Source: Ginglymostoma cirratum
Lineage: Eukaryota
Assembly (NCBI GenBank): GCA_024137785.1
Contig: JAHRHZ010000051.1
Coordinates: 19,641,388 to 19,705,387, forward strand
Reading direction: 5' to 3'
DNA length: 64,000 nt
A model generated the notes under the pieces. It saw only the letters and a program-made list of their open reading frames with translations. It did not search any database and was not told where the DNA came from. Of the stretch, positions 3,555 through 60,599 are shown one piece after another. A program made the position numbers and the translations under genes. Every line of letters starts with the position of its first letter. Position 1 is the first letter of the stretch.

Positions 3555-5173
3555 AGAGAGGCCTGAACCATTCTCATCCACCACCACTCTCCTCTGCCTG
3601 ACCGAGCTCATCCTCACTTTGAACAACTTCTCCTTTAACTCCTCTCACTTTTTTCAGGTCAAACCGGTGGCCATGGGTACTTGCATGGGCCTCAGTCATG
3701 CCTGTCTCTTTGTGGGATATATGGAACATTCCTTTTTCTTTTCTTACTCCAGCCCCCACCCACAACTCTTTCTCCAGTACATCAATGACACAATTGGTGC
3801 TGCTTCCCTCTCTTATCTGGAAATTGGAATTGCTTCACTCTACCCTCACCTTCACCTGGTCCATCTCTGACTCCTTTCTTCCCTCCCTCAACGTTTCCAT
3901 TTCCATTGCTGGGGATAGACTCGCCACCAATAACCACTACAACCTGCCTAGTCCCACAGTTACGTTGACTATACCTCCTCACATCCTGATCCCTGTAAAG
4001 ACTCTATTCCATTCACCTAGTTTCTCCACTTCCATCACATCTGTTTCAATGTTGCCAGCTTCTTCAAGGGGACCTCCAAAATGCCCACCTTCTTCCTCAA
4101 CTGAGGATTCCCCACCTCCCTAGTTGAAAGGGCCCTCAGTGTATCTGATCCATCTCCAGCACTTTGACCCTCACCCCCTCTCTTCCCTACCACAACAGCA
4201 ATAGAGTTACCTTCTCCTCACCTAACATCCCACCAAGGATCATTAGCCGCCATTTTTGCCAACTCCAGTGGGATACCACCACATCATATTCCCCTCCCCT
4301 CCCGTGCCAAACTTCCACAAGATCCATTCCCTCCTGGACACCCTAATCTACTCCTCCTTCACTCCCAAAATGTCCCCACACCCCACAGCACCTTCCTCTG
4401 AAATTATCGAGGGTGTAATATCTGCCTGTTTACTTCTTCCCTCCTCACCATCCGAGGTCCCAAACACACCTTCCAAGTGAAGCAATGCTTTAGCTGTACT
4501 TCACTCACTGTAGTCTACCTTATGCACTGCTCACAATGTGGTCTCCTTAACACTGGGGAGACAAAACACAGATTGGGCAATTGCTTTGCAGAACACCTAC
4601 ACTCTATCTGTAAAAATGACCCTGAGCTTCCTGTTGTCTGCCACGTCAACAAATTACCATGTTGCCTGGCCAACATCTCTGTCTCAGGCTTGCTGCAGTG
4701 CTGCAGCAAAGCTCAGTGCAAGCTGGAAGAACAGCATCTCGTTTTCCATTTGGAGAACCATACAACCTTTGTGGCTCAATATTGAGTCCAATAATTTTAG
4801 GGCCTGAGCACCTTCTCCCATGTCCTTACCCCAAACACCAAGCGTTATCATCACAAGGGCGGCTACAACAAACAACCCATTATCAGCTACTAATGTTCCC
4901 AAGTAGCTGCTATTGATTCCCCCAGACTGGCCTTTAGCCATTCCTTTGTCTGTCCAGCTGTTGTTTTCTCTCTCTCTCTGGGCTTCATCTCTACCTATCG
5001 TTTACTCCTCCACCTTCTCCGCCCCCCAACCCCATCTTCATCCAATATACCAACCTTTTCCCAGCTACAATCAGTTCTGAAGAAGGGTCACTGAACCGGA
5101 AATGTTATCTCTGCTTTCTGTCCACTGACGCTGCCAGACCTGCTGAGTTTCTCCAGCAATTTCTGTTTCTGTT
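3555..5173 (+). mobile_element. 5'-truncated Penelope-like element (RT C-terminus, GIY-YIG endonuclease, 3' pLTR)
   Basis: ORF 3508-3870 LTLNNFSFNSSHFFQVKPVAMGTCMG...LFLQYINDTIG (PLE RT motifs); ORF 4477-4785 VVYLMHCSQCGLLNTGETKHRLGNCFAEH (GIY-YIG); pLTR with hammerhead relic at 5077-5107. Frameshifted. Confidence 0.92.
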
Positions 5174-21415: not shown

Positions 21416-21627
21416 CAACATGCATGCCACAAATCCTTTCCTACAGTTAATTGTATTGTTTCTACACTGCCTTCCAGCTCCATCTTGGATAGTGGAACCT
21501 AAGTCATACCTGGAAATGCTCAGGCTATTGGAATTGATGCCATGTAGAACGTTTGCCAGATTTAACATGTCAAAACTAGTTGCAACTCCTTCAAGTAATG
21601 GAGCTAGTAGGAACAGCCAATGCTTCA

Positions 21628-21723
21628 TTTTCTGAAGAAGGGTCCTGACCCAAAAAGTCAGCTTTCCTGCTCCTCTGATGCCGCCTGGCCTGCTGTGTTC
21701 ATCCAGCTCCACACCTTGTTATC
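21628..21723 (+). mobile_element. Solo arm of the Penelope-pLTR hairpin family with a mutated hammerhead core
   Basis: ctgaagaagggtcctgacccaaaaagtcagctttcctgctcctctgatg...acaccttgttatc, homologous to the arms at 44354-44449 and 60076-60159. Confidence 0.85.
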
Positions 21724-25226: not shown

Positions 25227-25935
25227 ATAGACAATAAGGACTGCAGATGCTGGAAGCCAGCGTCTTTAGATGTGAGGCTGGAAAAGCACCCTAGGTCAGA
25301 CAGCATCCAAGGAGCAGGTGAGTCAACATTTCCATATTGCATCCATTGCTCTCAATGTGGTCTCCACTGTATCAGGGCAACACAAACACAGACTCGAGGA
25401 TCGGCTCACGGAGCATCTGTGCTCTGCAAGAACCAACCAACCTGACCTTCCAGTTGCCATCCATTTTAATTCCCCCCCCCACTCCCCTGATGACATGTCT
25501 ACCCTTGGCCCCTCCACTGTCAAAGTGAGGCCAAATATAAACTGGAGGAACAACACTTGATGTTTTGCTTTGGAAGCTTACAGCCCAATAACCTTAACAT
25601 TGACTTCACCAGCTTCAAAATCCCTCCATCCCCAGCCCTTAACCCATGTCCAGCCCTCCCCCTCCTAACCTGACCTAACCTGTCCATCTTCCCTTTAACC
25701 TGTCCACTCCACCCTTCCCACGGACCAATCACAACAACCCCCTACATGCATCCACCTATCACCATCCCTCCTAACCTTCCCCCAGACCCACCCCGTGCCC
25801 CACCCCCCACCCCCGTTCATTTCTGGGCTCCCCTCCCCCTCCCCAGGCATGATAAAGGGTTTCGGTCTGAAACATTGACCCACCTGCTCCTCGGATGCTC
25901 TCTGACCTGCTGTGCTTCCCCAGCCTCACATTTAT
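25227..25935 (+). mobile_element. Penelope-like element with inverted partial pLTR, GIY-YIG fragment and about 14-bp TSD
   Basis: YCIHCSQCGLHCIRATQ / HRLEDRLTEHL...LPVAIHFNSP GIY-YIG; 25265-25332 is an inverted copy of 25869-25935; flanks aaattcaattggtc (25213-25226) and aaactcagttggtc (25936-25949) match 12/14. Confidence 0.88.
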
Positions 25936-43555: not shown

Positions 43556-43875
43556 TAACGAGTGCTTGGATCTCAGCTATTTATAAATTACAGTCATTAC
43601 ATAGATGAGTGGACTGACTGTAATTGTTTCAAGTTTACTGATGATACAAAGTTGCATGGGGAAGTAAGCAGTTAGAAAGACTGCAAATGGATATAGACAG
43701 TTTAGATGAGGGGGCAATATCGTGGAACATACTATGAGGAAGTGTAAAGTTATCCACATTGTTATAAAAGATAGAAAAGCAGAAACTATTTAAAATATAA
43801 ACAATGCATTGGTATTCCAAGGACCAGGATGTTCTTGTATATGAAACCCAGAAAGTACAGCAAGGAATTAAGAAG

Positions 43876-44484
43876 GAGATAACAAGCATGGAGCTGGATG
43901 AGCACAGCAGGTCAAGGAGCATCATNNNNNNNNNNNNNNNNNNNNNNNNNNNNNNNNNNNNNNNNNNNNNNNNNNNNNNNNNNNNNNNNNNNNNNNNNNN
44001 NNNNNNNNNNNNNNNNNNNNNNNNNNNNNNNNNNNNNNNNNNNNNNNNNNNNNNNNNNNNNNNNNNNNNNNNNNNNNNNNNNNNNNNNNNNNNNNNNNNN
44101 NNNNNNNNNNNNNNNNNNNNNNNNNNNNNNNNNNNNNNNNNNNNNNNNNNNNNNNNNNNNNNNNNNNNNNNNNNNNNNNNNNNNNNNNNNNNNNNNNNNN
44201 NNNNNNNNNNNNNNNNNNNNNNNNNNNNNNNNNNNNNNNNNNNNNNNNNNNNNNNNNNNNNNNNNNNNNNNNNNNNNNNNNNNNNNNNNNNNNNNNNNNN
44301 NNNNNNNNNNNNNNNNNNNNNNNNNCGGGCCTAAACCCTTCATCAGAAAATCATTTTCTGATGAAGGGTTTAGGCCCGAAACGTCAAGTTTTCCTGCTCC
44401 TATGATGCTGCTTGACCTGCTGTGTTCATCCAGCCCCATGCTTGTTATCTCAGATACGCCAGCATCTGCAGTACCTTTTATCTC
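43876..44484. mobile_element. Palindromic Penelope-pLTR hairpin element with hammerhead motifs, 33-bp tail and TSD, spanning a 400-N gap
   Basis: 43876-43925 is the reverse complement of 44402-44451 (3 mismatches); perfect 25-bp inverted repeat 44326-44350/44354-44378; tail 44452-44484; attaagaag(gagata) duplicated at 43867-43881 and 44485-44499. Confidence 0.9.
44354..44388 (+). ncRNA. Minimal type I hammerhead ribozyme motif (intact core)
   Basis: tttt-CTGATGA(44358-44364)-A-GGGT ttag GCCC-GAAA(44378-44381)-CGTC-aag; putative GUC cleavage triplet 44383-44385, palindromic ACGT helix III as in dimeric PLE hammerheads. Confidence 0.75.
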
Positions 44485-45029
44485 ATTAAGAAGGAGATAG
44501 TCTGTTAGCCTTTACTGCAAAAGGATTGGAGTACAAGAGTAAGTAAGTCTTTTTTAAAAACATACAGGATGTTTGGCAAAACCACACCTGCCTATTGTGT
44601 GCATTTTCACTCACCTTATCTAAGGAAAAGATAAACTTGTTTTAGATATTTAACAATGACTTTTAACTAGAGTACTTTATGGGATGAGGAGGTGTTCTAT
44701 GTAAAGTGATCGAGTAGACTAGATAGGCCTACATACCCTAGAATTCAGAAGACTGAGAGGAAATTTAAATACAAATATTCAAGGAAATGAACAGGCTAAA
44801 TGTTGTGTGGATGTTTCTTTGGCTAAACAGCCTGAAACGTGGAATCATAGTCTCAAAATAAAGGATTGGCCATTTAGTACTAAGATGAAAAGAAATTCTT
44901 TATGCAAAAGTTTGGGAATCATTAGAATTCTGTACTCAAAAAAGCTGTTGAATGTATTCAAGACAATATTCACTTGATTTTGAATTTTGAGAGAAGTAAG
45001 GGAAATGTTGATTGATGTGGTTTGTGCTT

Positions 45030-60042: not shown

Positions 60043-60599
60043 GAGATAATAGGTACTGCAGATGCTGGAGAATCCGAGATAACAAGGTGTGGAGCTGGAT
60101 GAACACAGCAGGCCAAGCTGCATCATAGGAGCAGGAAAGCTTGACGTTTCGGGCCTAGANNNNNNNNNNNNNNNNNNNNNNNNNNNNNNNNNNNNNNNNN
60201 NNNNNNNNNNNNNNNNNNNNNNNNNNNNNNNNNNNNNNNNNNNNNNNNNNNNNNNNNNNNNNNNNNNNNNNNNNNNNNNNNNNNNNNNNNNNNNNNNNNN
60301 NNNNNNNNNNNNNNNNNNNNNNNNNNNNNNNNNNNNNNNNNNNNNNNNNNNNNNNNNNNNNNNNNNNNNNNNNNNNNNNNNNNNNNNNNNNNNNNNNNNN
60401 NNNNNNNNNNNNNNNNNNNNNNNNNNNNNNNNNNNNNNNNNNNNNNNNNNNNNNNNNNNNNNNNNNNNNNNNNNNNNNNNNNNNNNNNNNNNNNNNNNNN
60501 NNNNNNNNNNNNNNNNNNNNNNNNNNNNNNNNNNNNNNNNNNNNNNNNNNNNNNNNNNNTGGCCTGCTGTGTTCATCCAGCTCCACACCTTGTTATCTC
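60043..60599. mobile_element. Palindromic Penelope-pLTR hairpin element (tail on left), TSD, spanning a 400-N gap
   Basis: 60076-60115 is the exact reverse complement of 60560-60599; tail 60043-60075; flanks aaccatctctaaat (60028-60041) and aaccatctgtaaat (60600-60613); minus-strand tctaggcccGAAACGTC at 60143-60159. Confidence 0.9.

Follow-up and report, generated by a model that had tools for sequence, protein, structure and literature searches.

A head-to-head insertion in a shark CR1-like LINE is one of thousands of stubs of a young Penelope-type element, which together likely record where its RNA starts, is cut and is copied

The window analyzed here is a stretch of 64,000 nucleotides of the Ginglymostoma cirratum assembly GCA_024137785.1 (contig JAHRHZ010000051.1, positions 19,641,388 to 19,705,387 of the forward strand), and all coordinates refer to it. 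The insert lies in a decayed CR1-like LINE (3′ part of ORF2, plus strand), which supplies the host DNA to the left (43561..43866) and right (44500..44950). Both flanks align to CR1-like ORF2 copies without the insert at four other loci (59-65% identity), collinearly and across the empty site. The insert is bounded by a 15-bp direct repeat (43867-43881 and 44485-44499, plus strand), the target-site duplication, whose left copy has its last 6 bp in common with the end of the short arm. This minus-strand arm is visible in two pieces, an outer part (43876..43925, element positions 99 to 50), the outer end of which is the first inferred RT start site, and an inner part (44326..44351, positions 26 to 1), which includes the first half of a minus-strand hammerhead. 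An assembly gap of 400 N (43926..44325) separates them. A single unpaired junction base (44352), at the inferred 5′ end of the RNA of a Penelope-like element, is followed by the plus-strand long arm (44353..44451), which corresponds to positions 1-99 of the 5′ end, or pLTR, of that element (97.7% identity to the reference arm over 132 bp). Within the long arm lies a minimal type I hammerhead core with a palindromic helix III (44358..44385, plus strand, predicted cut after 44385), following the motif given in the accessible part of PMC4209133 and with a weak helix I. A 33-bp plus-strand tail (44452..44484, positions 100-132) on this side only ends at the second inferred RT start site and abuts the right copy of the duplication.

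The outer inverted arms (43876-43925 and 44402-44451) are 94% complementary over 50 nt, with mismatches at 3 of the 50 positions, and the inner ones (44326-44351 and 44353-44378) are 100% complementary over 26 nt around the unpaired base. Thus, 76 of the 99 bp of the left arm are visible, the remainder being inside the gap. Within head-to-head copies, 12 of 20 gap records (three of which are the same gap counted twice) have an exact overlap of 11-42 nt between their two sides, and gap-free relatives are 230-240 bp long, most of them with 13-16 bp duplications. For these two reasons, the gap at this locus is very likely a placeholder that conceals only about 23 bp of the short arm. The first-pass annotation, made from the letters of this stretch, had described near-perfect arms of about 98 bp around a 3-nt loop, a hammerhead on both strands, a 33-bp one-sided tail, a target duplication of up to 15 bp inside a CR1 LINE, and no ORF. 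The tail, the duplication and the insertion site were all recovered, as was the loop upon folding (comparison of the inverted arms leaves one unpaired base), and the probable content of the gap together with the size of the gap-free copies agrees with the absence of an ORF. Inverted arms are present, but their full length is an extrapolation across the gap and their outer parts carry the three mismatches; likewise, the plus-strand hammerhead core is complete and its minus-strand counterpart can be followed only as far as the first G of GAAA.

The window holds further repeats of this kind: a copy with the same centre that is cut by the window edge (1-112), an older arm with an apparent inverted tail piece upstream (21627-21723), a much older inverted pair (25253-25928), and another gapped head-to-head copy of an older subfamily (60043-60599). 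At 5077-5157 lies a member of another, older family of hammerhead-like repeats, whose helix II region is longer.

The genome contains 26,131 exact occurrences of a 40-mer from the young arm and none of its reversed control, so the match of the arm is not due to chance. Among the first 30 of these hits, 14 are linked to an ORF, the others are solo arms, tandems or inverted pairs, and the exact centre of our locus is absent. Blind sampling also met, in one stretch, an arm at 98% with ordinary element sequence upstream. The sequence following position 132, first seen in one locus and then used as a query, returned 30 loci in which the arm runs directly into the ORF start; two of them are partial tandems, in which the pLTR, with its hammerhead, is formed by the partial tandem. 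The parental order is arm, long ORF, 3′ region and second arm. Because the arm continues into the ORF start and recurs downstream, it serves as the element's 5′ end and also as its 3′ pLTR. Among the matches listed, ORF-linked copies carry an arm at 96-100% identity to that of the palindrome in 30 of 30 cases, with the outer end of the arm at 131-132 in 10 and at 97-109 in 20. One natural parent copy encodes in a single open frame a reverse transcriptase domain (RVT_1, E 1.6e-6, just below the curated cut-off) along with a GIY-YIG domain at the C terminus (E 3.8e-5, above cut-off). These domains, together with the inverted 5′ copy, the optional 30-40 bp tail and the target duplication, identify an EN+ Penelope-like element, and the Penelope origin first proposed for the insert is borne out, its arms being the first 99 and 132 nt of this autonomous element. 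The GIY-YIG domain is preceded by a cysteine-rich linker, a trait of Neptune-type elements, to which the parent may belong. The N-terminal region of the parent contains a Thr/Ala/Pro/Asp-rich repeat whose length differs between copies. The insert itself is a young Penelope insertion of the ordinary type at its minimal size; as a single locus, it is ordinary.

Several observations suggest that the element RNA starts at position 1 of the arm. In 515,740 blind-sampled bases (8 of the first 20 stretches were all N), 9 of the 13 solo arms start at positions 1-3; copies without an ORF begin there as well, and direct tandems restart there, while RT reads through these positions in ORF-linked copies (14 of 30 unbiased hits). 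In the parent, a TATA-like motif lies at -31 and an initiator-like one at +1. In 19 of 30 non-inverted, non-body boundaries, moreover, the base before the start is a G that is absent from the parent, against an expected fraction of 0.25 (p 8e-6; 10 further boundaries without the A were set aside). Since a target duplication adjoins the start in only 5 of 41 solo-type copies, which makes just these 5 usable for the purpose, an untemplated origin of the extra G is not established. Nor does the TATA reading apply generally, because Schostak et al., in the accessible part of their paper, report a TATA-less internal promoter in Drosophila Penelope. Splicing as the origin of the 5′ boundary was rejected, as the parent has no acceptor AG at the boundary. 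The junctions all cluster at position 1, which is likely the capped 5′ end of the element RNA; the polyA RNA run described below revealed no transcript start or end positions, both mates being equal in depth, and so showed neither this start nor the cut. Many run-off copies, including this one (44354-44357), have one T more ahead of the core than the parent (four instead of three), a feature that the twin-priming model set out below leaves unexplained; our guess is that either RT or RNA polymerase slips at the start. At 10 loci, direct tandems were seen in which cDNA that had run off at positions 1-3 resumed at varied points of the 5′ body, often beside a G, which suggests template jumps seeded by an extra C.

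By sequence, the hammerhead has the conserved core, helix II and palindromic helix III of the minimal type. Helix I, which in that type spans 4-5 bp, has 4 pairs in the parent and 3 pairs plus a U-U mismatch in the locus copy. In the parent RNA, the core sits at the extreme 5′ end. The Rfam scan of the locus that had been proposed as a check gave no hammerhead hit, only sub-threshold hairpin matches (mir-203 and others), as expected for a core lacking helix III, and the core itself is nonetheless there on direct reading of the sequence. A complete natural copy folds as a hairpin at about -203 kcal/mol, from which a hammerhead-compatible fold costs 44-45 kcal/mol, and transcription of a head-to-head layout yields the antisense arm first, whichever strand is read. 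The switch between double-stranded RNA and a self-cleaving fold suggested by the first-pass annotation is for both reasons unlikely.

We then counted the copies that begin exactly at the predicted cut (position 34). This position gave 821 pattern hits, of which 12 of 30 sampled were solo truncations (about 410 after correction), compared with 171 hits at control position 32 (6 of 30, about 68), 746 at position 36 (2 of 30, about 71) and 638 at position 44 (4 of 30, about 122). Solo copies starting at the cut site are thus 3-6 times commoner than at the three control positions. When all truncations including inverted ones are considered, the contrast with position 44 is weak (about 718 versus about 577) because that position is a palindromic joining hot spot; it holds for the solo copies. 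Clear 13-14 bp duplications flank 2 of the 12 solo copies that start at the cut site. The excess of 5′ ends hints at cleavage in vivo by the putative ribozyme, and stalling of RT at the hammerhead fold may be an alternative source of these ends.

In a quarter of one polyA RNA run, 45,095 of 12.9 million records fell on the arm, equally in both directions; the run bears the same species label but comes from a different animal, and its reads are not assignable to this locus. Sites changed at 3% or more comprised 15 A>G and 22 T>C, as opposed to 6 G>A and 5 C>T. At positions 9, 12, 13, 28, 29 and 35, 6-14% of the reads have G, compared with 0 of 240-253 genomic arms in a sample that leans to the young type. 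These changes fit A-to-I editing of hairpins in host transcripts, in keeping with the earlier suggestion of a long double-stranded RNA resembling an ADAR substrate. According to the accessible text of PMC5625713, Penelope is heavily edited in a lizard, as is a palindromic repeat in a frog. In the shark run, thousands of reads share the same few flanks, so the arm is carried by a few highly expressed host transcripts. Loose ends resembling polyA appear soon after position 132, in a consensus of low agreement.

The first-pass annotation proposed that the palindrome is a mobile retrozyme- or MITE-like unit of about 230 bp. Such a non-autonomous element, transcribed and mobilized as a whole, could account for the exact centre common to many sites, for a few unusual junctions that recur, for the 230-240 bp length and target duplication of most complete copies, and for RNA reads that span head-to-head joints. 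However, among the 2,972 junction sites genome-wide with 13 or fewer bases between the two cores (some counted doubly across gaps, others hidden in gaps), the exact centre of the locus accounts for only 141 (4.7%), and the 50 of these sites that were listed, which represent 44 insertions because 6 are one centre repeated across a gap, contain 29 different kinds of junction by hand count. Thirty loci with the exact centre include both young and older arm types and both orientations of the central base. The palindrome arms are identical to ORF-linked arms, the palindrome has no upstream promoter piece, its hammerhead is buried at the energetic cost given above, and the unit forms no tandem arrays at the loci examined; nor did the sampled loci show the inherited fixed ends, fixed junction or diagnostic changes of a non-autonomous lineage of its own. 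Two apparent regularities were discarded as query bias: a fixed centre marking a master lineage (26 of 30 copies in the first search had the centre of the locus, because the query itself contained it, as unbiased patterns revealed), and a long arm always on the C side (both orientations exist). What the first-pass annotation had named as evidence against its own reading is largely seen, in that junctions differ between copies; a long internal Penelope body within the gap, named there too, is unlikely, with only about 23 bp probably hidden. We therefore regard a distinct mobile palindrome as very improbable, although a minor propagating sub-lineage may exist and would be compatible with the samples. 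Less probable still is that short-read assembly mirrored a single arm around a gap. The locus does have a 400-N gap, and duplication of the centre at such gaps is frequent: the assembly shows one and the same centre to the left and again to the right of them, so that counts and lengths of these repeats come out too high. Against a mirrored arm stand the gap-free copies with both arms and 13-16 bp duplications and, at the locus, the visible outer arm parts: 3 of their 50 bases do not match, their ends are not the same, and the duplication lies beyond them. The insert is not a distinct non-autonomous unit but one of thousands of stubs of a young, abundant Penelope-type element.

How the mirror image arises is best explained, and in our judgment probably so, by assembly at the time of insertion from two cDNAs on one RNA rather than by copying from another palindrome. 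The element RNA would start at position 1, just ahead of the hammerhead; the element protein would nick both target strands and prime twice on the one RNA, once per internal site (twin priming); with priming at the RNA's 5′ copy of the site, the cDNAs would be 99 and 132 nt long on running off the capped 5′ end, and would be joined head to head by their 3′ ends with small losses or additions. The product would have no promoter and its own ribozyme would be buried, which makes the stub a likely dead end, and it would become an editable hairpin when host transcription reads through. Among the head-to-head insertions in which both outer ends are visible, a long arm (126 or more) lies opposite a short one (108 or less) in 109 of 116, and in 87 of 90 once loci chosen by long-arm queries are removed, against half at most under independent choice. 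A considerably less probable route, which would still make each stub an independent by-product of the autonomous element, is fold-back: one cDNA primed at 132 runs off the RNA 5′ end, folds onto itself at its A/T-rich terminus and is extended by self-copying to about 99. Self-priming, on an antisense template, is the explanation favored in the accessible part of PMC3846280, and fold-back accounts for the perfect or near-perfect A/T centres, for the internal palindromic hot spot at position 44, and for variants common to both arms. Rare variants on the two arms coincide 18 times in 95 pairs, compared with 0.8 in shuffled pairs, and 107 occur on one arm only. This coincidence also speaks for two cDNAs made from one RNA; some of the shared ones are the very bases by which loci were picked, and sharing could arise by later arm-to-arm conversion as well as by fold-back copying. 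At the subfamily position 63, the arms differ in 4 of 88 pairs. On the other hand, position 99 is also an end in non-inverted ORF-linked copies (the 20 of 30 listed above), which makes it an RT start in its own right, and two cDNAs better fit both the junctions with inserted or deleted bases but no loop symmetry and the tail-only inversions, a classic non-overlapping twin-priming product seen in 4 of 183 boundaries. The second junction hot spot, at position 44 (six loci), falls in a short self-complementary word of the arm. Many copies extend a few bases beyond 132 into the parent's own continuation, in keeping with an internal RT start. For twin priming, the accessible part of PMC11167929 provides a biochemical counterpart: RT starts at two internal sites that delimit the tail, both strands undergo nicking and extension, and a dimer is predicted.

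Taken together, the stubs likely record the RNA start, the RNA cut and the copying mode of the element. We propose tentatively, as a reading that falls somewhat short of an even balance, that they are a fossil record of the Penelope reaction in the vertebrate germ line, in which one RNA is primed twice at the ends of the tail and the cDNAs end at a capped start that lies one helix upstream of the hammerhead, those of a second class at the ribozyme cut. If so, the cut-site class would be evidence of in vivo cleavage by a minimal Penelope hammerhead, and the tens of thousands of young stubs would constitute a large class of ready-made ADAR hairpins. In the accessible parts of PMC3846280, PMC8557442 and PMC11167929, the formation of Penelope inverted repeats and one-sided tails is a question left standing and in vivo cleavage by the minimal hammerheads of Penelope-like elements (PLEs) is not demonstrated. 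The shark stubs yield predictions that can be counted, namely the long and short pairing, the start site and the cut-site peak. They also break short-read assemblies and mimic MITEs, miRNA hairpins (as in the sub-threshold matches to mir-203 and others) or new retrozymes.

The layout of the stub is known for Penelope elements, and clues to mechanism at the level of the population are what is added here. Our search, which covers few subscription papers and not Repbase, found no paper that deals with such stubs in sharks or with Penelope twin priming. The accessible parts of PMC3846280, PMC8557442, PMC2377424 and PMC8969392 already describe pLTRs in inverted orientation with a tail on one side and a duplication. 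Judging from these, EN+ Penelope insertions (Pen2a_Av and others, PMC3846280 and PMC8557442; Penelope of D. virilis, PMC2377424) share with the stub the head-to-head pLTRs, a tail of 30-40 bp at one end, the target duplication, the hammerhead in the pLTR and assembly gaps at the inversion. Unlike insertions of the Pen2a_Av type, the stub has no part of the ORF and both its arms stop at the inferred RNA start; there are thousands of shark copies, so ends can be counted. The in vitro work on Poseidon of Anolis (PMC11167929, accessible part) is similar in its two internal RT starts bounding the tail, in the nicking and extension of both strands, and in a hammerhead upstream of the RT start sites. 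It reports no reads ending at the ribozyme cut, whereas 5′ ends in the shark genome peak there. The cysteine-rich linker before GIY-YIG also distinguishes the shark parent from Poseidon.

With the metazoan PLE minimal hammerheads, as far as the accessible part of PMC4209133 describes them, the shark core shares the lack of a helix III stem, an extra base before helix II, a G-C first pair and a short helix I; the reviews PMC6155905 and PMC6765202 touch on minimal hammerheads too. PMC4209133 describes hammerhead pairs on opposite strands 100-700 bp apart, whereas the shark cores are about 11 bp apart and each is fully complementary to the other's arm. Like the animal non-LTR retrozymes (accessible part of bioRxiv 10.64898/2026.07.22.740005; see also PMC7229834), the stub is short, non-coding, hammerhead-bearing and derived from a PLE pLTR; retrozymes are direct tandems with one same-strand hammerhead per unit (bioRxiv 10.64898/2026.07.22.740005), whereas the stub is inverted and its junctions vary. 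The direct tandem units with same-strand hammerheads that define a non-LTR retrozyme are not found at the locus, where the layout is head to head, and, unlike a retrozyme, the shark stub offers no monomer that could be released between two cuts. In LINE-1 twin priming, two primings on one RNA give rise to a 5′ inversion. The shark element differs in having fixed internal motifs as both of its RT start sites and in the usually complete overlap of the two cDNAs.
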